Source of the DNA: Candidatus Saccharimonadota bacterium
GTDB lineage: Bacteria > Patescibacteriota > Saccharimonadia > Saccharimonadales > SLHW01
Direction of reading: 5' to 3'
Length of the DNA stretch: 30,066 nucleotides
Assembly: GCA_007132685.1 (NCBI GenBank)
Contig: SLOC01000057.1
Location: forward strand, 1 to 30,066
Part shown: positions 1 through 30,066 of the stretch, piece by piece
Layout: each line of letters starts with the position of its first letter
Numbering within the stretch: the stretch's first letter is position 1
Position numbers and translations under genes: made by a program
Notes under the pieces: generated by a model
The model's database searches: none
What the model was told of the DNA's origin: nothing
What the model saw: only the letters and a program-made list of their open reading frames with translations

Positions 1-9
1 GGTAATCTG

Positions 10-18
10 TGCTACACT
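10..18 (+). promoter_or_regulatory. Extended -10 element (TGcTACACT), 6 nt before ATG 25; probable leaderless mRNA
   Basis: TGC-TACACT at 10-18, ATG at 25, no room for a Shine-Dalgarno sequence. Confidence 0.5.
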
Positions 19-24
19 TTTGCC

Positions 25-975
25 ATGGCAAAGAGAGACAACACCAAGAAGTCGGGGGGCAAGCAGGCTTCGAAAGCACGTGCTCGGAAAACTAGCGCGG
101 CTTCTACTTCCAAAAAACGAACCACTAAAGGTGCAGCGAAAAAGCGCACTACAACCAAAAAATCAACCACTAAAAAACAATCTGCTAAACAGTCGGTCGG
201 CATGAACGCTCGGATAAAAGCATTGACATCTGAACTACACGGTCTACGAGGACTACATGTGCTGTCAGCCGCGGTATTCGCAGGCTTAATCGCATTTGTT
301 TATACCGTAATGGAGGCAGTCGAGCGCACTAAGGTGATTAGCTACGCAGCAACAGATGCCTTGCGTGAAGACGCACTGGCGCCAGCGATCCAGAACTTCC
401 TAACGATTGACCTTCGCCACCTGTTAGCAGCTGGCTTGGGAGTCGCTGCTGTATACAGTCTGTTTATAGCGACAAGAGGCTGGAATAACTACATTTCCCG
501 AGCAAAGAAGGGCACTGTTGTCAGCCGATGGCTCATCGCGGCTATCTTAGGAGTTATCGGGCTGAAGGTTTCTTTCTTGTTGGTAGGTGTATTTGACGTA
601 TTACTACTAAGCGTATTAGCAGTTATGTTGATTGGCGCAACCTATCTCGCATATCGAGCAGACGTCGAAACAGTCAAAAAACGTAAAGCGAACCTATTTT
701 TGACTGCCGTGGTTACGGCTGCGGTCGTGGTGCTTGCGGCAGTAGTGTTTATCGCTACTAGCATGTGGCACGGCGTTACACTGCCGATCAGCAACTATAT
801 AGTCGTCGATTTCTTCGCACTTGGGCTACTTGGGTATGGCGTTAACCAGCTCTTTAGCCTCAAGAAGCGCAAAGGATTTGCTAAGTCAGAGGAAGTTGAG
901 CGTAACTACGTTTTGGTTACGACAGCTGCAACTGCGTTGTTCGCTGGCACCTTGATTATCGCGTTTATTTCGTAG
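25..975 (+). CDS. Heliorhodopsin-like 7TM protein lacking the retinal-binding Lys, with a Lys/Thr/Ser/Ala-rich N-terminal tail
   Basis: About seven hydrophobic helices after a basic tail. SRW...GVFD matches the heliorhodopsin TM3 pattern RWxEY...GIxD without gaps. LP..Y...VNQLFSLKKRKGF...ERNYVLVTTAAT matches the TM6-TM7 pattern P..Y...QY.K.GKW..Y..GERxYIxLSLVAK. Confidence 0.65.
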   Translation: MAKRDNTKKSGGKQASKARARKTSAASTSKKRTTKGAAKKRTTTKKSTTKKQSAKQSVGMNARIKALTSELHGLRGLHVLSAAVFAGLIAFVYTVMEAVERTKVISYAATDALREDALAPAIQNFLTIDLRHLLAAGLGVAAVYSLFIATRGWNNYISRAKKGTVVSRWLIAAILGVIGLKVSFLLVGVFDVLLLSVLAVMLIGATYLAYRADVETVKKRKANLFLTAVVTAAVVVLAAVVFIATSMWHGVTLPISNYIVVDFFALGLLGYGVNQLFSLKKRKGFAKSEEVERNYVLVTTAATALFAGTLIIAFIS

Positions 976-1005
976 AGGCAGTAGCCTAGCTATAAAAAGA
1001 AAACA

Positions 1006-2265
1006 GTGAGTCAAGCCGAAACGATAGTTAAACTTGAAAAGCTCGTCCACGGTGGTCAAGCGCTAGCGCGCTTAACCGATGGGCGAGCTGTTTTTGTGTG
1101 GGGCGGACTTCCAGGAGAAAAAGTACAGATACAGCTGCTAAAACAAAAGAAAGATTATGCTGAAGGGGTGGTAGAAGAGGTGATTAAACCTTCTCCTGAG
1201 CGTATTACACCGAAAGACGCTGCCTACCTGAGTACAAGTCCGTGGCAAGTGATGACTATTGAAGCTGAGCAAAGAGAAAAACAAGATATTTTGGTTGAAA
1301 CTCTAAAGCGAGCTGGCGTAGCACACCAGGATGATATTTCGGTACGCACGCCTCGTAAAACGTGGCAATATCGCAATAAAATGGAGTACAGTTTTTATGG
1401 AGATGCGGCAGGGCTGCACCTTGCACTATTTAAGCGCGGCACACATCGTAAACAGATTGTTGAGAGAAGTTCACTTGCGATGCCGGCAGTTGACGACACG
1501 GCAAATCGCATTAGATTAGTGCTTGCCGATGTAGGCGTGCGGGCAGGCAGCTTAAAGACGCTTATTGTGCGTGCCGACCAGAAAGGGAATACCACTGCGG
1601 CATTATTTGTAAAAGACGAAAATTTCCCAAAAATCAAAGACCTAGCTGCTGTCTGTCAAGGGCTAGTAGTCTACTACTCGACACCCAAAAGCCCGGCCAG
1701 TGTGTTGACCAAGGAGCTGTATAGGCATGGCGAGACTATTTTGCAAGACGAGCTGCTTGGTCACACCATTCGGTATGATGTGACGAGCTTTTTCCAGGTA
1801 AATATTGACGAGCTTTTACCTGCGGCGAGCACGATAGCTGAGTACATGGGTGTAGATGGAGAAGTCGTAGACTTCTACGCTGGAGTTGGTACTTTCGCGG
1901 CGATTGCAGGCGCATCCAAAATGGTAGAGCTGGATTCTGTAAATATCCAGCTTGCGCGGCGTAATGTGGCGAAGAGTTGCGAAGTAGTCCATGCTTCAGC
2001 AGAGCATTCGCTGGAACATATTCCCACGGGAGAGCATACGGGTTTGATCGTTGACCCGCCAAGGGCTGGTTTGCATAAAAATGTGATTCAACAGATTCGT
2101 CAAAAACAACCAGACCGGATTGCCTACCTGAGCTGCAATCCAGTTACTCAGGCTCGAGACCTAGCACTACTTCAAGACAGGTATGCTGCTGTAGCGATAA
2201 ATGGGTATAACTTTTTTCCTCGTACCCCACACATTGAAAGCCTGACGCTATTGGAGCGAAAGTAG
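1006..2265 (+). CDS. rlmD: 23S rRNA m5U methyltransferase, RlmD/RumA (TrmA) family, with TRAM domain
   Basis: N-terminal TRAM (GGQALAR..VFVWGGLPGE), YRNKMEY, SFFQVN, DFYAGVGTF, VDPPRAGL, catalytic YLSCNP, FFPRTPHIES. GTG start. Confidence 0.82.
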   Translation: MSQAETIVKLEKLVHGGQALARLTDGRAVFVWGGLPGEKVQIQLLKQKKDYAEGVVEEVIKPSPERITPKDAAYLSTSPWQVMTIEAEQREKQDILVETLKRAGVAHQDDISVRTPRKTWQYRNKMEYSFYGDAAGLHLALFKRGTHRKQIVERSSLAMPAVDDTANRIRLVLADVGVRAGSLKTLIVRADQKGNTTAALFVKDENFPKIKDLAAVCQGLVVYYSTPKSPASVLTKELYRHGETILQDELLGHTIRYDVTSFFQVNIDELLPAASTIAEYMGVDGEVVDFYAGVGTFAAIAGASKMVELDSVNIQLARRNVAKSCEVVHASAEHSLEHIPTGEHTGLIVDPPRAGLHKNVIQQIRQKQPDRIAYLSCNPVTQARDLALLQDRYAAVAINGYNFFPRTPHIESLTLLERK

Positions 2266-2961
2266 ATGAGCACCCATCGGTTTTTTATTAACCAAAAACT
2301 TAGCCGGAACAAGCGCTTAAGCGTAACTGACGAGGCGCTCCTTCATCAATGGCGAGCTGTATTACGACTTACACCGGGTGCGAGAATTATATTGTTCGAC
2401 GGAGAAGGGTCCGAGGCAATATACGAAGTGGGCTCACTTACGAAAAAGCGTGCCGACCTGATTTTGCAATCGGTTACTAAGCCTGTGCTGCCAAAGCGAA
2501 AAGTGCATCTCGCTTGGTCGCTGCTTAAGCGTGAAAATAACGAATTGATTATCCAAAAAGCGACGGAGCTTGGCGTGAGTCAACTCATCCCGATTATGGC
2601 TGAGCGATGCGTTCGATCACATGTATCGAATACGCGCACCGATAGATGGCAGCGTATTGCTACAGAAGCAGCTGAACAGTGCGGTCGTGGCGATATACCG
2701 CTCATCAGTGGAGCTGTATCACCAGCTGATTTGATAAATAGCCAGCCACGCGAATCGTTAATCGTGTGCCGAGTTGGCAATCAGCATCAACAAAACTTTA
2801 TCGGGGACTCAGGCATTACTGTGCTCGTTGGTCCGGAAGGAGGCTGGTCGCCTAATGAAGAGCGCTTGTTTGACGAGCATGAGGTGACATCATTGTCACT
2901 AGGGCAGTTCACGCTACGAGCTGAAACTGCTGCCATCATTGCCACCTCGAAGCTGCTCTAG
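2266..2961 (+). CDS. rsmE: 16S rRNA m3U1498 methyltransferase RsmE
   Basis: HQWRAVLR, IIQKATELGV, EAAEQCGR, VGPEGGWS and LRAETAA motifs. Directly abuts the upstream stop codon. Confidence 0.95.
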   Translation: MSTHRFFINQKLSRNKRLSVTDEALLHQWRAVLRLTPGARIILFDGEGSEAIYEVGSLTKKRADLILQSVTKPVLPKRKVHLAWSLLKRENNELIIQKATELGVSQLIPIMAERCVRSHVSNTRTDRWQRIATEAAEQCGRGDIPLISGAVSPADLINSQPRESLIVCRVGNQHQQNFIGDSGITVLVGPEGGWSPNEERLFDEHEVTSLSLGQFTLRAETAAIIATSKLL

Positions 2962-3032
2962 CAATTACTATGCATAAGAGGTATACTTACGCAGTAGACG
3001 ACCTATAACAAAAAAAGGAAAACAAACACGCT

Positions 3033-5003
3033 ATGGGTCTACAGCAAAACAAAATTGCTTCGTGGCTTGCGCACATCGTGCGATCCTTTCGATTGTTGCC
3101 CAAGCACAAAAAACTCTACGTGTTTAGCGGGGTACTAGTTGGCTATTCGGCTCTTTTGCTGCTGGTACAGTTTGTGTTGCCGAAAACCGTCGTGTTCTCT
3201 TATGGTGATCCGACTTGTGTAAGAAGTGTTGTTTTGTTGCCAGAGCTACATGCTGCCAACGGTGATGATTTGACGGTGTGGACTGAGAACGAACTGACTA
3301 TTGGCAACTACCCAGTCGCTGCTCGTTCGCTCTGTGTTGAGCCTAAAGTGACCCCCGAGCCAGGCAAGCAGCTTTCATCATCTGTTACGCCACGATATTT
3401 ACCGTTTCTTAGTCAGCGCCTGCAAGTAGAGATACCCTCGTACCCAAAACCGCTAAAAGAGCAAATTCAACCTGTTATCGAGTTGGCAGTTCGTGATGAG
3501 CTAGTGTTGGCGTTCGATAATGCGGATAGTTTCTTCGAGTACAAGATACAGGTAGACGATCAACATCAAAAATGTGAAACATACGGAGTTATACTAACGT
3601 GCAATCTTGCCAAGCTCGCGCTTGAGCAATCAAGTGAATACGAGGTGGTTGTCGATCGACTGTTTGGTGGTGTGCCGATTGAGTCGATTGCCCAAAAACG
3701 GTTGCGCACACTTGACCCGCTGGAGGTTACGAGCAGCTCTATTGACGTAGACGAGACAGTGTACGAGCAGCCAGACAATATAACATTGTCGTTCAATAAA
3801 CCGATTCAAGAGCCACGACCTAGCGCAGTGGTAGTCACTGATGAGTCGGGGTCACCAGTTGTGCACGAACTCCGTCTTACAGGTGAAAAAGAACTGACAA
3901 TACAGTTTGGCGATGTGCTGGAGCGAGAAACAACGTACAATCTTGTACTGACAACTGACCTCATAGCAGAGGACAATGCGCTTCTTAGGGAGCGCTGGGA
4001 GCTGCAATTTAGTACATCGGGGGGACCTTCGCCTCAAAACAGCACCGTTTTTGGCAACGGCATTAGCCGAAATGCCGAGCTGAGTGTGACGTTTGATCAA
4101 GAGCTGGATGAAAACCAAGACTTTAGCGAATCTGTGACACTTACCATTAATGGAAGCGTTGCTGATGCGCAATTATCTGCTCGTGGCGATCGATTGATAG
4201 TTGCAGCTGGTCAGCTTCCGCTTTGCTCTAAGTTGGAACTTAGGGTGGAAGGCGAGATTGTTAGCAAGCATGACGTGGGTGGTGAAGTTGCTTGGTCAAC
4301 CAGCGGAAGAGTGACATGTCGAACCACTTCGGTCATTGGTCACTCAGTGAGTGGTAGGCCAATTTATGCGTACACGTTTGGCGACGGACCTAACACCATT
4401 TTGTATGTCGGCGGCATGCACGGCAATGAGTACAGCAGTGTATTATTGCTTAATGCTTGGCTACGGGAGCTGGACGCGCACCCTGACCGAATCCCAAGCG
4501 ATAAAAAGTTAATCGTCATACCTGATAGCTGTCCTGACTGTGTCGCGGCACGGAGTCGGTTCAACGCAAACGAGGTTGACCTTAATCGCAATTTCCCAAC
4601 AGATGATTGGCAGTCAGAGGTATTTGTTCCTGGAGAAACCAGCATGCCAGAAGGCGGTGGCAGCCAACCTTTATCCGAACCGGAAGCTAAAGCACTTGCA
4701 GACCTAGTAAGGCGTGAACGACCTAAGCTCACGCTGACATACCATGCTGTTGCCGATGTGGTGATTAGCAATGACGCACCGCAATCCATTGATTGGGGTA
4801 GGGAGTACGCCCATCTGTCTGGTTATAATTTCTCAACTACCAACAACATAGAAAACATATTCAGCTACACCGCGACCGGTGCATTTGAAGACTGGATCAA
4901 AGACGAACTTAACTTACCGGCACTACTCGTGGAAATGGCTACCATGGGCACTAGCGAAATACAGCGAAATCGCAGCGCTCTTTGGTACACGGTAGGCTTG
5001 TAG
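3033..5003 (+). CDS. Membrane-anchored surface protein with Ig-like (SbsA/Big_5-type) repeats and a C-terminal M14 zinc carboxypeptidase (MpaA-like) domain
   Basis: N-terminal TM helix; Ig-like segments (ITLSFNKPI, LSVTFDQEL); M14 motifs GGMHGNE, RFNANEVDLNRNFP, SEPEAKAL, TYH, LLVE. Confidence 0.8.
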   Translation: MGLQQNKIASWLAHIVRSFRLLPKHKKLYVFSGVLVGYSALLLLVQFVLPKTVVFSYGDPTCVRSVVLLPELHAANGDDLTVWTENELTIGNYPVAARSLCVEPKVTPEPGKQLSSSVTPRYLPFLSQRLQVEIPSYPKPLKEQIQPVIELAVRDELVLAFDNADSFFEYKIQVDDQHQKCETYGVILTCNLAKLALEQSSEYEVVVDRLFGGVPIESIAQKRLRTLDPLEVTSSSIDVDETVYEQPDNITLSFNKPIQEPRPSAVVVTDESGSPVVHELRLTGEKELTIQFGDVLERETTYNLVLTTDLIAEDNALLRERWELQFSTSGGPSPQNSTVFGNGISRNAELSVTFDQELDENQDFSESVTLTINGSVADAQLSARGDRLIVAAGQLPLCSKLELRVEGEIVSKHDVGGEVAWSTSGRVTCRTTSVIGHSVSGRPIYAYTFGDGPNTILYVGGMHGNEYSSVLLLNAWLRELDAHPDRIPSDKKLIVIPDSCPDCVAARSRFNANEVDLNRNFPTDDWQSEVFVPGETSMPEGGGSQPLSEPEAKALADLVRRERPKLTLTYHAVADVVISNDAPQSIDWGREYAHLSGYNFSTTNNIENIFSYTATGAFEDWIKDELNLPALLVEMATMGTSEIQRNRSALWYTVGL

Positions 5004-5014
5004 CTTTTTTCAGC

Positions 5015-5023
5015 TGCTACAAT
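5015..5023 (+). promoter_or_regulatory. Extended -10 (TGcTACAAT), 8 nt before ATG 5032
   Basis: Motif and spacing read directly from the sequence. Confidence 0.5.
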
Positions 5024-5031
5024 AGAAGGCG

Positions 5032-5802
5032 ATGAGTTATTCTCGTAGTCAACCGTATCGGCCTGGCCAAACCAGCCCGTATAAATTATCTCGATCTAAG
5101 ATTGAACTGTTCATGCAGTGTCCGCGCTGCTTTTGGTTGGATAATCGGCTCAGAATTAAGCGCCCAAACACCCCGCCATTTCGGATAAATTCGGCGATTG
5201 ACGAGCTGTTGAAGCGAGAGTTTGATCGCTACCGAAGTGAGAAACAGCCACATCCAATTATGCGTGACAATGATGTCAAGGCCGTGCCATTTGCTCACAA
5301 AGATCTTGATAAATGGCGCGCGAACTTTACTGGCGTAGCGACAGTACATGAGCCAACCAACTTGTACATTTTCGGTGCATTAGATGATGTTTGGATTGAT
5401 GATGAACAGCAACTACTCGTCGTTGACTACAAAGCGACTGCTAAAGACCGGGAAGTATCAATCGATGCTGATTGGCAGATTGCGTACAAGCGGCAGATGG
5501 AAGTGTACCAGTGGCTGCTTCGGCAAAACGGCTTCACGGTATCTGATACCGCGTATTTTGTGTACGCCAACGGACGCCTGGATCTCGATAGCTTTGATAA
5601 TAAAGTTGAGTTTCAAACCAAGCTTATCCCTTATGTAGCCGATGCTTCCTGGGTAGATGATACGCTACATAAAATAAAAGAAACCTTGGAGGGTGACATT
5701 CCGTCGGTTGGTTCGGCCGCTATGGGCGGCCCATGTGATTATTGTAGTTATGCGCGTTCGCGCACAGAGATGACTCTACAGTCAATACAGGACAAATCAT
5801 AA
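5032..5802 (+). CDS. PD-(D/E)XK nuclease family protein (RecB/AddB/Cas4-like fold)
   Basis: LSRSKIELFMQCPRCF start, GALDD, VVDYKAT, YKRQMEVYQWLL and C-terminal CDYC. Confidence 0.8.
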   Translation: MSYSRSQPYRPGQTSPYKLSRSKIELFMQCPRCFWLDNRLRIKRPNTPPFRINSAIDELLKREFDRYRSEKQPHPIMRDNDVKAVPFAHKDLDKWRANFTGVATVHEPTNLYIFGALDDVWIDDEQQLLVVDYKATAKDREVSIDADWQIAYKRQMEVYQWLLRQNGFTVSDTAYFVYANGRLDLDSFDNKVEFQTKLIPYVADASWVDDTLHKIKETLEGDIPSVGSAAMGGPCDYCSYARSRTEMTLQSIQDKS

Positions 5803-5849
5803 GAATCTCTGCACATGAGTGCAATGATGATTTATACTAGGAGATAGAA

Positions 5850-7106
5850 ATGTTGGATATTCAATTTATACGGGACAATCGAGCGGTGGTTCAGCAGGCG
5901 GCGGACGCCAAAGAAGTTTCGGTATCGATTGATGAATTGCTGGCTCTCGACGAGCAACGCAGGGAAAAGCTGCAACAGGTGGAGGCGCTGCGCGCTAAAC
6001 GCAATGATGTTGCTGCCAAAATGAAGAGCGGCAAGCCTGATGCTGCGCAAATTGAAGAAGGCAAGCGAATCAAAGAGGAGCTCTCCGGATTAGAGGCTGA
6101 ACTACAAGAAGTGCTTACAGCTTATAACGAAAAGATGCTATTGGTGCCAAACGTCATGCACGAGTCAGTGACTCACGCGCCCGGCGAAGAGGGCAACATG
6201 GTCGTTGAAACACTTGGCGAGAAGCCGGAATTTGGCTTTACGATTCGCGATCACCAACAAATTGGTGAAGCAAAAGACTGGATAGATATCGAGACAGCGG
6301 CCAAGACCTCTGGATCACGGTTTTATTTTCTCAAGGGCGACTTGGTGCTCCTAGAACAGGCACTGGTGGCGTGGATTTTTAAAAAGCTCGTTTCCAAAGA
6401 TTTTACACCGGTGAGTGTACCGACATTGGTCCGGGAAGAGATGATGGAAGGAACCGGTTTTTTCCCGGCGGAACGCAACGAAATCTACTCAGTTAATCCA
6501 GACGAAGACAATCTATTTCTCGCTGGTACATCCGAGGTGCCGCTCACTGGTTTGCATCTAGTGAATGAGCTCAAAGAGGAAGATTTGCCGAGAAAATACG
6601 TCGGGTATTCGACTTGCTATCGCCGAGAAGCGGGTAGTTACGGCAAAGATACCAAAGGTATTTTCCGCGTTCATCAGTTTAATAAGCTGGAGATGTACTG
6701 TTTTGCCCACCCGGATACTTCCTGGGATATTCATGAAGAGATGCTTGCTATTGAGAAGGAGATTTTATCTGAGCTCGGGCTGCACTACCAAGTAATAAAC
6801 ATTGGTTCTGGTGACCTTGGTGCGCCTGCGGCGAAGAAATATGACTGTGAAGTCTGGATACCAAGCCAAGAGAAGTATCGTGAATTGACCAGCTGTTCAA
6901 ACGTGACGGACTTTCAGGCAAGACGAACCGGCATTAAATATCGAACAAGCAGCGGCGAAAAAGCTTATGTACATACGCTCAATGGTACGGCCATGGCGTC
7001 TACACGTACGTTGATTGCCATTATGGAAAATTATCAAACAGAGGAGGGAAATGTGATAGTTCCAGAAGTATTACGACCATACATGGGAGGAAAGGAGCAA
7101 ATATGA
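5850..7106 (+). CDS. serS: Serine--tRNA ligase
   Basis: MLDIQFIR start, coiled-coil arm, LAGTSEVPL, STCYRREAG, FRVHQFNKLE, ELTSCSNVTDFQARR, HTLNGT. AGGAG upstream. Confidence 0.98.
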   Translation: MLDIQFIRDNRAVVQQAADAKEVSVSIDELLALDEQRREKLQQVEALRAKRNDVAAKMKSGKPDAAQIEEGKRIKEELSGLEAELQEVLTAYNEKMLLVPNVMHESVTHAPGEEGNMVVETLGEKPEFGFTIRDHQQIGEAKDWIDIETAAKTSGSRFYFLKGDLVLLEQALVAWIFKKLVSKDFTPVSVPTLVREEMMEGTGFFPAERNEIYSVNPDEDNLFLAGTSEVPLTGLHLVNELKEEDLPRKYVGYSTCYRREAGSYGKDTKGIFRVHQFNKLEMYCFAHPDTSWDIHEEMLAIEKEILSELGLHYQVINIGSGDLGAPAAKKYDCEVWIPSQEKYRELTSCSNVTDFQARRTGIKYRTSSGEKAYVHTLNGTAMASTRTLIAIMENYQTEEGNVIVPEVLRPYMGGKEQI

Positions 7107-7480
7107 TACAAAAGTTTGAGATAACCGCGAAGAAAATCGAGCTCACCGAGGAGCTTAAGAAATATATCACGAGAAAAATTGCCAAACTTGACCGCTACTT
7201 ACCGCGTCAGGCACGTGAATCAGCTCACGCCGAGGTCATCATGAAGGAAGCAGGTGGCAGCAAAGGAAAAAAGACCTACACGTGTGAGGTCGTACTGCAG
7301 GTTCCCGGAGAGACGATTACTGTGTCGCAAGCGACCATCAACCCGTTTGCTGCGGTTGATATTGCCGAAGATACGCTCAAAAATCGTATTCGTAAATACA
7401 AAAATACCCACGGCACTAACCGCTTGCATAAGCGAGTGCTTTCTCGTATGAAGCGTCGCACTGGCGGCCGGCTCGATTAA
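7103..7480 (+). CDS. hpf: Ribosome hibernation factor, short HPF/RaiA type
   Basis: IELTEELKKYITRKIAKLDRY, CEVVLQVPG and FAAVDIAEDTLKNRIRKYK. ATGA overlap with the serS stop; sits upstream of secA as is usual. Confidence 0.88.
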   Translation: MIQKFEITAKKIELTEELKKYITRKIAKLDRYLPRQARESAHAEVIMKEAGGSKGKKTYTCEVVLQVPGETITVSQATINPFAAVDIAEDTLKNRIRKYKNTHGTNRLHKRVLSRMKRRTGGRLD

Positions 7481-7636
7481 TTTTTGTTTGCCATACATTT
7501 TTGCCTCGCACATCAACTGATAGTGCGCTACAATGGGGACTAGTATTTTTATGCACTTGCTGGGTGGGTGAGTATTCAGTCTTGAACTGTGCATAAAGCA
7601 AACAAGATAAGACACAGGAGATACTACCGAAGCGAT

Positions 7637-10237
7637 ATGAAGCGAATAGTAAAGCACGTGCTTGGCGACCCACAAATCAGAACATTGCGTCGCCTGAGAA
7701 AGCGCCAGAAAGAAGTCAATGCCAGAGCCGACACCTATAAGAAGATGTCGGATGCCAAACTCAAGAAGCAGACCGCTGCATTAAAGAAGCGCCTTAAAAA
7801 AGAATCTCTCGATGCGATATTGCCTGATGCGTTCGCAGTAGTACGAGAAGTCGCTGACCGCACCGTTGGCATGCGCCACTTTGATGTACAGATTATCGGC
7901 GGCATCGGGCTTCACGAAGGGAGCGTGACTGAGATGAAGACTGGTGAGGGCAAGACTCTCGTCGCAACCGCGCCAGTATATCTCAACGCACTTACGGAAA
8001 AAGGCGTGCACGTGGTTACCGTCAATGATTATCTAGCACAACGTGACGCTGGCTGGATGGCGCAAATCTATGACTTTTTAGGTTTGAGTGTCGGTGTTAT
8101 CATCGCGAACGAATCTTTTGTCTACGACACCTCATTTAGCAATGACGATCATGATGATCCACGGTTCAAGCATCTCAAGCCATGTACTCGCCGTGAGGCT
8201 TACGAGGCCGACATCACCTATGGAACGAACAACGAATTCGGCTTTGACTATTTGCGTGACAATATGGTGCGCGAAGTTGGGCAATTGCGCCAACGTGATT
8301 TGCACTATGCGATTGTCGACGAAGTTGACTCGATTCTGATTGACGAGGCTCGAACGCCGCTTATCATCTCTGCGCCTTCAGTGACGAGCGGTAGTGCCTA
8401 TGCACAGTTTGCCAAGGTAGTCCGCCCACTAAAGCGCGACGAGCACTTCGAAGTCGATGAGAAGCGCAGAACTGTAATTCTTACCGACGAAGGGGTTGAA
8501 AAAGTCCAAAAAACACTTGGTGTCGATAACATCTATGGGTCTGAACACATTCGTACGATTTACCACCTCGAACAAGCGCTCAAGGCAGAGGCAATCTTCA
8601 AGCGAGACAAAGACTACGTGGTTACCAATGATGGTGAAGTAGTAATCGTCGACGAATTTACCGGTCGTCTGATGCACGGTCGCCGTTATAATGAAGGCCT
8701 ACACCAGGCAATTGAGGCAAAAGAGGGCGTCGAGGTACAGCAGGAGTCCATGACGCTAGCGACCGTATCATTCCAGAACTACTTCCGTTTGTACGAAAAG
8801 CTAGCTGGTATGACCGGTACTGCTATGACCGAGAGTGAAGAGTTTCATCAGATTTATAAGCTCGATAGTGTAGAGATACCACCGAACAAGCCACTGATTC
8901 GCAAAGACCACCCAGACAGGATTTATCGAACTGAGAAGGGTAAATTCCGGGCTATTTTTCGGCAAGTGCAGGCGCTCCACCAAAAAGGCCAGCCAGTGCT
9001 AATCGGTACTAATTCGATTGAAAAGAACGAATTACTCAGCGAATGGCTGAAAGACGAGGGTGTCCCGCACGAAGTCCTAAATGCAAAAAACAACGAGAAA
9101 GAGGCGGCGATTGTTGCCAAGGCCGGTCAAAAAGGTGCCGTAACGCTAGCTACCAACATCGCTGGTCGTGGTACCGACATTGTGCTTGGTGAAGGGGTCA
9201 AAGAGCTCGGTGGCTTGTTTGTACTCGGTGCGGAGCGTAATGAATCACGCCGCGTTGATAACCAGTTGCGTGGTCGATCCGGTCGTCAAGGTGACCCGGG
9301 CGCGAGTCAGTTCTACGTGAGCACGGAAGACCACTTGATGCGAGTGTTTGGTGGCGACAAAATCGGCAACTTTATGAATCGCATGGGCGCTGATGATGAG
9401 ACGCCAATCGAGAGCCGCTTTATCAGCCGTAGCCTGGAGGCAGCACAGAAGCGCGTTGAGGGATACAACTACGATGCTCGTAAAAACGTGGTGAAATACG
9501 ACGACGTAATGAACCGACATCGTCGTGCTACCTACACTATGCGCCGGGAAATACTTCTCGAAACAGATATCAAAAAGCGTATTAAGATTTTCATCGAAGA
9601 AGAAGCGGGTAAAATGGCAGCTTCACCACTACTCACAACTGAAAAGTTTGAGTCAATCGTGACTCACGTGTTCCCGCTCGATGACCCGGCGCTGGATCGC
9701 TTGTTCGACACTGACGCCGATCTATTTGAGAAATCCTTAGTCAAGGAGGCAAACGAGGCGTATGACGAGAAAGAATTTGCCTTCACACCGGAAATTATGC
9801 GTAAAGTTGAACGCGATGTGTACCTGCAAATCCTGGATAATTTATGGATGCAACACCTTGAGAACATGAGCCACTTACGTGAAGGTATCCACTGGATAAG
9901 TGTTGGGCAGCGGGATCCGTTGGTCGAATATCGTCGTCAGGGTCAGCGCTTGTTTGAGGAAATGCAAGGAAGTCTACGCCACGATGTACTTCGTACGCTC
10001 TTCCACGCTGAACCGGTCAGCAAGGAACAGCTCGAGCAGCCAGTAGAGACCGAACTAACCAAGGCGGCTCGTCACTCAGTAAGTAATGCGAACCAAATCC
10101 AGCGCTCTGAACAACACTCCGAGTCTGAATACACCTCCAAGCGTAAAGAGGTTCGCCAGAAGCAACGCCAACAACAAAAACGCAAGAAGACGCGCAAAGC
10201 CGAGCGACAACGCAAAAAAGCCCACCGCAGAAAGTAG
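7637..10237 (+). CDS. secA: Preprotein translocase ATPase SecA (start placed at ATG 7637 rather than GTG 7589)
   Basis: EMKTGEGKT, VNDYLAQRD, DEVDSILIDEARTPLIIS, ATNIAGRGTDI, DNQLRGRSGRQGDPG. No C-terminal SEC-C Cys motif. Confidence 0.98.
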   Translation: MKRIVKHVLGDPQIRTLRRLRKRQKEVNARADTYKKMSDAKLKKQTAALKKRLKKESLDAILPDAFAVVREVADRTVGMRHFDVQIIGGIGLHEGSVTEMKTGEGKTLVATAPVYLNALTEKGVHVVTVNDYLAQRDAGWMAQIYDFLGLSVGVIIANESFVYDTSFSNDDHDDPRFKHLKPCTRREAYEADITYGTNNEFGFDYLRDNMVREVGQLRQRDLHYAIVDEVDSILIDEARTPLIISAPSVTSGSAYAQFAKVVRPLKRDEHFEVDEKRRTVILTDEGVEKVQKTLGVDNIYGSEHIRTIYHLEQALKAEAIFKRDKDYVVTNDGEVVIVDEFTGRLMHGRRYNEGLHQAIEAKEGVEVQQESMTLATVSFQNYFRLYEKLAGMTGTAMTESEEFHQIYKLDSVEIPPNKPLIRKDHPDRIYRTEKGKFRAIFRQVQALHQKGQPVLIGTNSIEKNELLSEWLKDEGVPHEVLNAKNNEKEAAIVAKAGQKGAVTLATNIAGRGTDIVLGEGVKELGGLFVLGAERNESRRVDNQLRGRSGRQGDPGASQFYVSTEDHLMRVFGGDKIGNFMNRMGADDETPIESRFISRSLEAAQKRVEGYNYDARKNVVKYDDVMNRHRRATYTMRREILLETDIKKRIKIFIEEEAGKMAASPLLTTEKFESIVTHVFPLDDPALDRLFDTDADLFEKSLVKEANEAYDEKEFAFTPEIMRKVERDVYLQILDNLWMQHLENMSHLREGIHWISVGQRDPLVEYRRQGQRLFEEMQGSLRHDVLRTLFHAEPVSKEQLEQPVETELTKAARHSVSNANQIQRSEQHSESEYTSKRKEVRQKQRQQQKRKKTRKAERQRKKAHRRK

Positions 10238-12483: not shown

Positions 12484-13512
12484 ATGCCACCGCAACAAAC
12501 ACCAGGAAATTCAGTACAACCAGGGGGTCAGCCGCAGCAGTCAGGCACTCCTCCGCCAACCCCGAATGGCGCACTGCCGCAGCAGCCTGCAAGCCAACCA
12601 TCAGCACCACAGCAGCCACCCCAGCCAGCAGCACCGCCACCCCAGCCTCAAACACCAACACCTGCACCAGTACCACCTGTCTCGGGGCCTAGTGGACAGC
12701 AGCCTGCAAGCCAACCACCAGCAGCACCACAGCAGCCAACCCAACCACCACCGCCACCCCAGCCTCGACCTCCTGTTCCAGCACAGGGTGCACCTGGGCA
12801 ACAGGCAGTTCAACCACAGCAGTTCAACGCTGGGCAACAAAACTTCCAGTACCCAGCTACACCAAAACCAAATAAGCTCAAGAAAGCTCTTCTGGTAGGT
12901 GGTGGTGGCCTCATCGCGATTCTGTCATTAGTCTTTGGTGTCATGTTTGCCTTGGGCTTTGTTGGCGGCATTTCCTACGATGAGCTTACGCGAACGGCGA
13001 CCACTTCAGATACAGAAGAAAACATATCAATCAGACACCCAGTTGAAATGAAGGAAGTCTACATAGGCTCAACCGGTATGGAGTTAACCCACTCAGACGA
13101 AGAGAGCGGCGGTATGTATAGTCAAGTGTATATTGACAGTATATTTCTCGGCCAAGGACTTGGGGATGTTCGTGACGAATTAACAAGCAACCTTACAGAT
13201 AACGAGAGCGAACTGTATCAAGAGATAGTACGTGATTTTTCAAATCAGCCCGATGAGCGTCGAAATTTCGAGATTGGCGACTTCCGAGAAGTTGACATCG
13301 ATAATATCGAAGGCATCCTGGCGTCAAGCGTTAGTTTCGATATCCCTCTCGCTACAGATGAAGATGAGTATGTTCCGGTGAGCGGAGAAATTATGTATGT
13401 TTTCGGTGAAGAGAAACTTTTCATCGTCGTTGTCACAGCGCTGGATGAAGTATATCGAGGTAATCAGTCGATATTTAATGAAATGATTGATAGCTTGCGC
13501 TTTGAATCATAA
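12484..13512 (+). CDS. Pro/Gln-rich single-pass membrane protein with an acidic C-terminal domain (possibly PsbP/DcrB-like)
   Basis: About 125 aa of P/Q low complexity, KKxLKK followed by a TM helix, then a D/E-rich globular domain. Confidence 0.6.
   Translation: MPPQQTPGNSVQPGGQPQQSGTPPPTPNGALPQQPASQPSAPQQPPQPAAPPPQPQTPTPAPVPPVSGPSGQQPASQPPAAPQQPTQPPPPPQPRPPVPAQGAPGQQAVQPQQFNAGQQNFQYPATPKPNKLKKALLVGGGGLIAILSLVFGVMFALGFVGGISYDELTRTATTSDTEENISIRHPVEMKEVYIGSTGMELTHSDEESGGMYSQVYIDSIFLGQGLGDVRDELTSNLTDNESELYQEIVRDFSNQPDERRNFEIGDFREVDIDNIEGILASSVSFDIPLATDEDEYVPVSGEIMYVFGEEKLFIVVVTALDEVYRGNQSIFNEMIDSLRFES
12580..12766 (+). repeat. Imperfect direct repeat of about 70 bp (12580-12649 and 12697-12766) inside the P/Q-rich coding region
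   Basis: Both copies start with an identical 21-mer cagcagcctgcaagccaacca and end in ccgccaccccagcctc. Confidence 0.85.
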
Positions 13513-13517
13513 ATAGT

Positions 13518-13526
13518 TGCTATACT
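13518..13526 (+). promoter_or_regulatory. Extended -10 (TGcTATACT), 7 nt before the prfB GTG; probable leaderless mRNA
   Basis: Motif and spacing read directly; no SD. Confidence 0.55.
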
Positions 13527-13533
13527 ACACCTT

Positions 13534-14622
13534 GTGAAACAGTTAGCAATAGAATGCAATACATTACTCAACGAGGTGCAGGATGCTATAAGCAGCCTCA
13601 AAATTCGCGAACTTGAAACAGAGCGCAACGCGCTCGCTGACGATATGGCGTCTGCCGACTTCTGGAACCATAATGAAATGGCAGCGAGAAAATCCAAGCG
13701 TCACGCTCGGCTTGAGGAGCAAGTGACGCCATGGCTTGAGCTAGAGCAGCAACTAGCTGAGCTGGTGGAGCTTACTGCGACAGGAGACGAGTTGCTTACC
13801 TCAGAAATATCTGAGCAACTGGCACGCCTAGAGCAGCGGTTAGCCAAAATGAAGCAGCAGCTTATGTTCCGTGGCAAATACGATAACTACGATGTTATCT
13901 TAACCATTCATGCAGGAGCAGGGGGAACTGATGCTCAAGATTGGGCTGGGATGCTGTTGCGTATGTATAGTCGATGGGCGAGCAAGCAGAGCAGTGTAGA
14001 GGTGAGCCTTATAACCGAATCAGCAGGTGATGAAGCGGGGATAAAAAGTGCCTCACTAGAATTAATTGGTCCATTTATGTACGGAAAACTGCAGGGCGAG
14101 CATGGGGTGCATCGACTCGTACGGCAGAGCCCGTTTAATAGTGATAACTTACGTCAAACGAGCTTCGCTATGGTAGAAGTTATGCCAAAAGTTGATGAGC
14201 CAAAAGCAGTGGCTATCGATGACAAAGATATTAAAATTGATGTATATCGGAGCGGGGGGCGCGGAGGCCAATCGGTTAACACGACTGATTCGGCAGTTCG
14301 GGTAACGCACATCCCCACCGGCGTTACCGTTACTATTCAAAATGAACGCTCACAGCTACAAAACAAAGAGGCAGCACTGACGATACTTCGATCTCGGCTT
14401 CTGCAGCTCTCGCTACAGCAACACGTAGAGAGAGTCGAAGAGCTAAAAGGTCCTTCGACTTCAGCAGAGTGGGGGAATCAGATACGTAATTACGTCCTGC
14501 ACCCATATAAGCAAGTCAAGGATTTGCGAACCAAACATGAAGTCAAAGACCCAGACAGTGTACTAGATGGCAACATAGATGAATTTATAGACGCCTACTT
14601 AGAGTACAGTTTAAAGAGTTAA
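13534..14622 (+). CDS. prfB: Peptide chain release factor 2, continuous ORF
   Basis: GAGGTDAQDW, GEHGVHRLVRQSPF (SPF motif), GGRGGQSVNTTDSAVR, QNERSQLQNK, WGNQIRNYV. Confidence 0.97.
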   Translation: MKQLAIECNTLLNEVQDAISSLKIRELETERNALADDMASADFWNHNEMAARKSKRHARLEEQVTPWLELEQQLAELVELTATGDELLTSEISEQLARLEQRLAKMKQQLMFRGKYDNYDVILTIHAGAGGTDAQDWAGMLLRMYSRWASKQSSVEVSLITESAGDEAGIKSASLELIGPFMYGKLQGEHGVHRLVRQSPFNSDNLRQTSFAMVEVMPKVDEPKAVAIDDKDIKIDVYRSGGRGGQSVNTTDSAVRVTHIPTGVTVTIQNERSQLQNKEAALTILRSRLLQLSLQQHVERVEELKGPSTSAEWGNQIRNYVLHPYKQVKDLRTKHEVKDPDSVLDGNIDEFIDAYLEYSLKS

Positions 14623-19128: not shown

Positions 19129-19211
19129 CTTGTCTTTGAGCTACTGTAGAAGTTGCAAAACATTCTTAACTTTCCAAATCGCTTCTGTATAATGGGGTGG
19201 TCGGAGGATAT

Positions 19212-29275: not shown

Positions 29276-29356
29276 CCCTCGATAGTAGGTTGTTTACTGC
29301 TAGCCGAAGCACTTAGCCATTAGTAGCATCTGGGTGTTCACTGCGGTATACTGAGA

Positions 29357-30066
29357 ATGTATAACGGGGGTAAAAACACCAACAGGATTATGACGTTCGA
29401 GCAAAAAAATGTACCAATGACGGAGCCGGTCGCTCATGAACGATCGCTCGCGTTGCAGCTACAGCAAGCACTTCTGCAGATATCACAATACGCTCAAGGC
29501 AGCACCGTCGATGCTACCGCGATAGAAACCACGGCTCGACGGACGCTTGATTTGATTGATTGTTATCTCGCGGGCTCTTGCGCACCGAACCAGCTTAAAC
29601 TGCAACTTGAGCCGGTTGCACTCGGATCAATCATGCAAGACGCTATGCACCAACTCTACCCAGCTGCTCGCCAGTATGGCTGTCAGTTGTGGCTTAAGTC
29701 TGCTGGTAAAACTGATTTGGTGTATACCGATAAGTCACTTGCCAAGCTTGCTTTTGTCGGACTTGGCCACAGTCTGATAGAAGAAGCCGCCAATCGAGAT
29801 GCCTCACGTCGAGTCGTGTTTGCGATTAAGCCGCACCGCAATGGTCCTATGGCAGGGGTGTTTTCCCCAGGCATGGCTATCAGGTCGCGCTCCCTCCATC
29901 AGCTTAAGGCGTTGCGCGGGCAGGCTACCCGACAATCAGGTGATTTTAGCGGAACAGCCACTGGCGTAGTGCTTGCTGATAAGCTGCTCGACAGGATTGA
30001 CCGTCAATTGTTTGCCACGAGCTTCCAGAGACTTAAAGGGTTTGCAGTGACGTTTGATAAAAGCAC
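29357..30066 (+). CDS. Degenerate histidine-kinase-like protein, truncated by the window end; start uncertain (29357, 29390 or 29417)
   Basis: Hand translation, absent from the ORF track: ...LQLQQALLQISQYAQ...IETTARRTLDLIDCYL...LQLEPVALGSIMQDAMHQL...LAFVGLGHSLIE...GTATGVVLADKLL...GFAVTF. This follows the DHp-CA layout of kinases without canonical motifs. Confidence 0.55.
   Translation, partial: MYNGGKNTNRIMTFEQKNVPMTEPVAHERSLALQLQQALLQISQYAQGSTVDATAIETTARRTLDLIDCYLAGSCAPNQLKLQLEPVALGSIMQDAMHQLYPAARQYGCQLWLKSAGKTDLVYTDKSLAKLAFVGLGHSLIEEAANRDASRRVVFAIKPHRNGPMAGVFSPGMAIRSRSLHQLKALRGQATRQSGDFSGTATGVVLADKLLDRIDRQLFATSFQRLKGFAVTFDKS

Follow-up and report, generated by a model that had tools for sequence, protein, structure and literature searches.

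What is left for a heliorhodopsin (HeR) to do once the lysine that carries retinal has gone? This question is raised by the first gene of a 30,066-nucleotide stretch of DNA (here called the window, meaning the whole stretch at its full length), which starts at the first base of its contig (C29) in a 588-kb genome that is 78% complete. The host is a Saccharibacteria (CPR) bacterium whose DNA was matched in soda-lake and salt-lake metagenomes, and the closest named relative, Candidatus Saccharibacteria bacterium isolate CSSed165cm_172, has a protein that is 66% identical. An earlier note, made from the letters of the window, had described the gene as encoding a HeR-fold protein that lost its photochemistry residues and was repurposed for a role other than light sensing. 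Our analysis indicated that the gene very probably encodes a functional HeR-fold protein unable to form a retinal Schiff base, that it is the positional orthologue of the canonical HeRs of other Saccharibacteria families, and that it stands at the most diverged end of a natural series, along which lysine, counterion and pocket were repeatedly lost under purifying selection. The features to which the text refers are the following, with the evidence for each in brackets.

10 to 18, + strand: extended -10-like box TGCTACACT, with the hexamer TACACT at 13-18; the box ends 6 nt upstream of the ATG
25 to 975, + strand: coding sequence of the 316-aa heliorhodopsin-fold protein, an intact open reading frame with the stop codon included
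25 to 201, + strand: disordered tail rich in Lys, Thr, Ser and Ala, residues 1-59, predicted to be cytoplasmic (pLDDT, composition)
238 to 972, + strand: seven-transmembrane heliorhodopsin-fold domain, residues 72-316 (pLDDT, Foldseek, hhalign)
277 to 279, + strand: F85, at the site of the TM1 His (His23 of 48C12; all 22 canonical HeRs of the order have His here)
328 to 411, + strand: long beta-hairpin in the TM1-TM2 (AB) loop, residues 102-129 (AF2 strands, conservation)
457 to 459, + strand: S145, at the site of the TM2 His (His80 of 48C12; alignment)
526 to 531, + strand: R168-W169, kept equivalents of Arg104-Trp105 in RWxEY, at the cytoplasmic end of TM3 (alignment)
535 to 537, + strand: I171 (codon ATC), at the site of the counterion Glu107, the E of RWxEY (MAFFT, hhalign)
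898 to 909, + strand: E292-R293-N294-Y295 (ERNY), at the cytoplasmic end of TM7, with E292 equivalent to Glu230 of 48C12 (alignment)
931 to 933, + strand: T303 (codon ACT), at the site of the Schiff-base Lys241, the K of SLVAK (MAFFT, hhalign)

The assignment to the HeR fold, which had been proposed by eye, was upheld by both profile and structure comparisons. The protein encoded at 25-975 matched the Pfam family Heliorhodopsin (PF18761) with an E-value of 1.6e-7 and 31.4 bits, above the gathering threshold of 26.7 bits, and the match spanned positions 8-234 of the 242 in the profile; in the genome search the score was 31.6 bits, the lowest of all HeR matches in the order. The NCBIfam HeR equivalog (NF038020) was not reached (30.8 bits vs a cut-off of 100), and the best phmmer match of the protein to PDB sequences, TaHeR, had an E-value of only about 1. 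Thus, the plain sequence is too diverged, and profile and fold comparisons were needed. When the family profile was compared with the canonical HeRs of the same order, hhalign gave a probability of 99.07% and an E-value of 1.4e-18. The AlphaFold2 (AF2) model, which was built on 12 homologues, contained seven helices together with two strands at residues 102-114 and 117-129, and pLDDT over 10-residue blocks was 73-96 across residues 71-316, with a dip to 58 at the hairpin turn (residues 111-120). All of the top 10 Foldseek matches of this model in PDB were heliorhodopsins (48C12 and TaHeR), with a best E-value of 3.6e-8 and target TM scores of 0.75-0.83, and type-1 rhodopsins followed well behind; the type-1 family (PF01036) had no match in the window protein. 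A long AB beta-hairpin is a hallmark of heliorhodopsins, and in the close family of the window protein D111 and A119-P120-A121 of this hairpin were invariant. The distribution of charge followed the positive-inside pattern (net charge of +21 in the tail, and BC, DE and FG loops rich in Lys or Arg), and the N-terminus would accordingly be placed in the cytoplasm, which is the inverted topology of HeRs.

We then mapped the residues of the retinal site from two independent alignments, a MAFFT alignment of 53 HeR matches from 61 related genomes and the hhalign alignment, which agreed with each other. Reference positions were those invariant in the 22 canonical HeRs of the order, and 48C12 residues were named after Kovalev et al. 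(10.1101/767665). TM3 and TM6-7 aligned to the HeR pattern without gaps, as had been suggested; in both alignments the Schiff-base Lys corresponded to T303 and the counterion Glu to I171, and the two His of TM1 and TM2, which the earlier note had thought to be replaced, were indeed Phe (F85) and Ser (S145). Most of the remaining pocket had also changed: 48C12 residues Ser76, Asn101, Tyr108 and Ser111 were replaced by A141, V165, A172 and L175, respectively, Pro172/Trp173 by V235/V236, Ser237 by T299, and Trp246/Gln247 by G308/T309. In addition to R168-W169 and E292, the residues kept were Y156 (Tyr92) and D191 (Asp127, at the dimer interface), and acidic character was maintained at D213 (Glu149). 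The ERNY motif itself was typical of a divergent subfamily, whether its members bore the Lys or not. These residues show that the chromophore side is gone, whereas the polar cluster on the cytoplasmic side and the dimer elements on the extracellular side have been kept. TM7 of the window protein had no Lys or Arg at all. K181, the sole Lys inside a helix, was considered as a relocated Schiff-base Lys and rejected, as it was not conserved among close homologues. Judged from its residues, covalent binding of retinal by the window protein is impossible.

The loss of the Lys was not confined to this protein. HeR matches were found in 48 of the 61 genomes of the same order, and the maximum-likelihood tree separated 22 canonical copies, each of which had both Glu and Lys, from a divergent group of 30 copies. 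Less than half of the divergent copies (13) kept the Lys, and in the other 17 this residue was T, A, L, V, Q, Y or R. The tree required seven or more changes of the Lys state. The stem leading to the clade of the window's genus was very long (1.54 substitutions per site), and the branches after it were constrained. When 1.84 billion cluster representatives (50% identity) were searched with a profile, at least 753 relatives were retrieved, 140 of them with E-values of 1e-30 or below. Among 161 aligned database proteins the Lys was absent from 63, and the commonest pairs of residues at the counterion and Lys positions were Asp and Lys (54 proteins) and Glu and Lys (21 proteins, four of which were canonical anchor sequences that we had added). 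Arg occupied the position of the Schiff-base Lys in 20 of the 161 proteins (P0012, P0018, P0050 and 17 others), often with the counterion Asp or Glu kept, and such a fixed Arg-carboxylate pair might mimic a protonated Schiff base. The remaining Lys-less proteins in this alignment had small or aliphatic residues at the Lys position.

The window protein belongs to a divergent, ERNY-type group of HeR-like proteins of Saccharibacteria and other CPR bacteria, in which the ERNY motif, Phe or Tyr in place of the TM1 His, Ser or Pro in place of the TM2 His, and a basic N-terminal tail are common features. Most members of the group keep the Lys (98 of the 161 aligned proteins) and an Asp or Glu counterion, whereas the clade of the window has lost both, plus Pro172/Trp173. 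The window protein shares with the canonical HeRs (48C12, TaHeR; PF18761) the seven-transmembrane fold, the long AB hairpin and the equivalents of the RW of RWxEY, Glu230, Tyr92 and Asp127; its topology would likewise be N-in, and its gene has the chromosomal position of the canonical copies of sister families. It differs from them in lacking the Schiff-base Lys, the counterion Glu, both His and most of the pocket, and in adding a basic tail of about 70 residues.

This slot was conserved in the order greA ... aspS ... (ornithine/DAP decarboxylase) - msrA - HeR - TRAM RNA methyltransferase - rsmE - (M14 peptidase) - PDDEXK nuclease - serS - hpf - secA, and the order of the gene block was kept across many families (window 1-10237, loci L054-L099). 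The divergent HeR copies occupied this slot, and Lys-less copies were found there in the window's genus and in at least 11 further families. In five genomes (G045, G057, G014, G023 and G011) the slot held fully canonical HeRs (290-313 bits, with Glu, Lys and both His), and canonical copies located outside it included those of G004, G005, G049 and G001a. Since the slot is common to canonical HeRs and the window gene, the latter is a positional orthologue and not a stray paralogue; neither this relation nor the wide recurrence of Lys loss in the order is part of the earlier note. In one of the five genomes, a 65-aa open frame (G057:C22:12134-12295) matched only the last 54 positions of the HeR profile (74.6 bits) and may be a remnant of a second HeR copy.

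The most constant neighbour was msrA, which directly adjoined HeR in about 16 of the 23 loci examined; in about five loci it lay on the opposite strand, divergently oriented, yet still next to HeR. HeRs have been linked to oxidative-stress defence in earlier proposals (PMC8612252), with which the adjacency of msrA is consistent. Because the whole region is syntenic, this adjacency is by itself weak evidence. A complex prediction for MsrA with the 7TM domain (residues 60-316 of a 98%-identical copy) scored 0.00 against a mark of 0.34 and gave no verdict. With the window's proteins as queries, the TRAM methyltransferase and RsmE were not found in G004, which has only a canonical HeR. The TRAM methyltransferase was also absent from the slot in G003 (G003:C3, L056), and a search of the whole of G003 with the window's protein as query found none.

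Upstream of the window gene, no Shine-Dalgarno sequence was present between the -10-like box and the ATG. Of the upstream regions of 31 orthologues, about 27, read by eye, had a box of the form TGnTA(T/C)A(G/C)T at 6-7 nt from the ATG, and in one related locus (L057) the spacer from msrA to HeR was 47 nt. As for the proposal that the gene has its own promoter, the extended -10 box and its conservation among orthologues speak for it, but the window begins at a contig end, so that only 24 nt lie upstream and the matter is not decidable from the window alone. From these sequence features, the gene is probably transcribed from its own extended -10 promoter into a leaderless or near-leaderless mRNA. 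A search for RNA runs that contain this stretch of DNA listed none. The start of the protein was conserved as well, with the N-terminus MAK(R/K) across the orthologues of the frame at 25-975. Elsewhere in the window, boxes of the type TGnTAnAnT without a Shine-Dalgarno sequence were seen 4-8 nt before the start codon of several other genes (5010-5034, 13512-13536, 19180-19199 and 29338-29359), and mRNAs with no leader or a very short one may be common in the host organism.

The long N-terminal tail was another feature that changed along the series. Residues 1-71, which precede TM1, had a net charge of about +21 and a pLDDT below 50. Median tail length and charge were 7 aa and about +1.5 in the non-syntenic canonical HeRs, 19 aa and +6 in the syntenic canonical HeRs, and 49 aa and +14 in the divergent copies, and the tail reached about 71 aa and +21 to +23 in the window's genus. 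The N-termini of the orthologues (L012-L043) show that the basic tail is confined to HeRs of the syntenic lineage and that it lengthens as the photochemistry residues vanish.

Analysis of selection revealed that the gene is maintained. Compared with a copy of 98% identity from a metagenome contig of 140 kb (L057), the gene showed 20 nucleotide differences, 15 of them synonymous and 5 non-synonymous (binomial p 4e-6). Among the four Lys-less species of the genus, between which synonymous sites were saturated, NG86 dN/dS was 0.08 in the 7TM domain, 0.11-0.16 overall and 0.25-0.33 in the N-terminal tail. The frame was intact in all four species (315-319 aa) and in close cluster representatives. 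The view that the gene has an intact reading frame and does not look like a decaying pseudogene was therefore supported by the low dN/dS, the excess of synonymous differences and the intact frames. A recently inactivated relic, drifting toward loss, might have been suspected from the Pfam score, the lowest of all HeR matches in the order (31.6 bits), but a dN/dS of 0.08-0.13 in the Lys-less genus clade (within the limits of NG86), the 315-319 aa frame intact in four species, and the conserved promoter box and start codon make such a relic extremely improbable.

Since covalent binding of retinal is impossible and most pocket residues are replaced, a role independent of light, as had been proposed in general terms, is supported; lipid or ligand sensing and scaffolding, which the earlier note named, are candidate forms of it. 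The explanation that we favor as a whole, and consider somewhat more probable than its contrary, is that a HeR-fold protein unable to bind retinal covalently has been retained as a light-independent scaffold or regulator. A more specific form of it, which we put forward tentatively and at a little less than even chances, is that the window protein still performs a light-independent half of HeR function, acting in the membrane as a dimeric scaffold or regulator. Its working surface would be the polar cluster that faces the cytoplasm (Y156, R168, W169, D213 and E292, to which R293 and N294 are added). The conserved basic loops on the cytoplasmic side would share in this role, and the basic tail could bind partners in the cytoplasm, for example proteins, nucleic acid or anionic lipid. 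Isomerisation of retinal would modulate the cytoplasmic surface in canonical HeRs, whereas in the window protein this surface would be locked in one state. According to one report (PMC9529153), HeRs bind cytoplasmic enzymes such as glutamine synthetase, and AbHeR, which holds retinal, regulates in a light-dependent manner the glutamine synthetase encoded next door. The conserved neighbour of the window HeR is msrA instead of glutamine synthetase. The best-conserved residues of the Lys-less members lay on both membrane faces, namely the extracellular hairpin, G188, D191, G250 and Y258 together with the cytoplasmic cluster; thus, the cytoplasmic face is not uniquely singled out.

Several other functions were weighed against this scaffold or regulator. 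In the Lys-less genus clade, the polar residues R101, H132 and D262 (DNA 325-327, 418-420 and 808-810), which are charged or titratable, lay toward the extracellular half, a hydrophobic region in canonical HeRs. R101 and H132 were invariant or nearly so in this clade and D262 was present in 13 of 14 members; together with Y93, Y144, S246 and W153, each occurred in 12-14 of the 14 and was almost absent from Lys-retaining relatives. These polar gains hint at a new rather than a retained function, and the emptied pocket with the new extracellular-half residues could bind a ligand other than retinal or provide a path for ions, as in a neofunctionalised receptor or transporter. The very long stem (1.54 substitutions per site) followed by constrained branches, the clade-specific R101, H132, D262, Y93, Y144 and S246 that Lys-retaining relatives lack, and the exchange of bulky pocket residues for Ala, Gly, Val or Thr would all fit. 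On the other hand, no transporter-like or receptor-like partner genes were found nearby, and other Lys-less lineages of the order have no residues of the R101/H132/D262 type, so that such a reading covers the window's genus only; we regard it as unlikely. Light-independent lipid scrambling or membrane organisation, with the fold kept by a lipid-scavenging episymbiont, is quite unlikely in our opinion. Opsin folds are able to scramble phospholipids in the absence of retinal. This function would agree with the strong constraint on a 7TM domain without a chromophore site, with the very small genomes (0.6-1.2 Mb), with the retinal-independent scramblase activity that one report describes for a proteorhodopsin (PMC10730872), and with the proposal that Lys-less FArhodopsins act in membrane microdomains (PMC10308929), but the conserved cytoplasmic polar cluster and the basic tail would be left unexplained.

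The content of the carrier genomes bears on the other two possibilities. A silent subunit that forms a heterodimer with a canonical HeR and tunes it, as proposed for Rh-noK beside proteorhodopsin (PMC10308929), would be in keeping with that precedent, with the retained D191 at the dimer interface and AB hairpin, and with the canonical HeRs that the genus mates G001 and G003 also carry. Only three of the 17 genomes with a Lys-less copy (G001, G003 and G034) had a canonical HeR alongside it, however, and where present the canonical copy was at a different locus. In the other 14 carriers there was no further PF18761 match and no PF01036 match; 12 of these genomes were at least 90% complete, including G002 (99%). 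The lack of any other opsin match in 14 of 17 carriers argues against a silent subunit, which we consider highly improbable. In G003, a type-1 rhodopsin match (58 bits) adjoined the non-syntenic canonical HeR outside the msrA slot (G003:C26:5691-6257 and 6529-7260). Continued photoreception, with retinal held non-covalently or with another chromophore such as a carotenoid and no Schiff base, might be imagined for a host from soda and salt lakes, the more so as a carotenoid-binding site has been proposed for most HeRs (10.1101/2025.11.27.691015). Against it, the Lys, the counterion and the two His have all been exchanged, and so has most of the pocket (P172/W173, Y108, S237 and W246). Moreover, the BCD family (PF15461; retinal synthesis by carotenoid cleavage) was not found in the host's own genome, which is 78% complete, although it was not matched in the control genomes either. 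A photoreceptor of this kind is very unlikely. Type-1 rhodopsin (PF01036) likewise had no match in the host's genome or in the control genomes.

The light-independent scaffold or regulator has parallels among type-1 relatives without the Lys, namely Rh-noK, haloarchaeal opsins without a retinal site and freshwater FArhodopsins (PMC10308929). As in those proteins, the opsin fold has remained under selection after loss of the Lys, and a non-photic role has been proposed for them (PMC10308929). They belong to PF01036 and have a topology opposite to that of HeRs, whereas the window protein is a HeR by sequence and fold; and Rh-noK is arranged in tandem with a working pump, but the window gene is flanked by msrA and RNA methyltransferases, usually with no other opsin in the genome. 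Heliorhodopsins have been reported to be common in Saccharimonadia in a survey that screened for the SxxxK motif (PMC9166423), and in a 2026 survey two of 13 uncharacterised rhodopsin-like cluster representatives were without the Lys (PMC13739731). Our search of the literature outside subscription journals found no paper on Lys-less heliorhodopsins or on a linkage of HeR with msrA. Within the literature searched, Lys-less HeRs appear to be new, and Lys-less type-1 opsins are already known. Surveys based on SxxxK only (e.g., PMC9166423) would leave a substantial share of CPR HeR homologues unreported: 17 of the 30 divergent copies in the order and 63 of the 161 aligned database proteins would escape such a filter.

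A broader and more speculative view, which we think rather doubtful, is that the main role of the syntenic Saccharibacteria HeR is independent of retinal, with light as an optional modulator that many lineages have discarded, and that in the window's genus the new polar site of the extracellular half (R101, H132, D262) and a histone-like cytoplasmic tail make up a non-photic 7TM receptor or tether. If true, this would mirror in bacteria the transition of an opsin into a chemoreceptor. For the family as a whole, one locus provides a natural series of orthologues, from fully canonical to retinal-incapable, all under purifying selection. The function still left in the Lys-less members should correspond to the light-independent core of HeR function, which becomes directly testable if members of the series are compared for their partners, localisation or activities. 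The retention of a Lys-less orthologue under strong purifying selection suggests that part of what heliorhodopsins do is independent of light.
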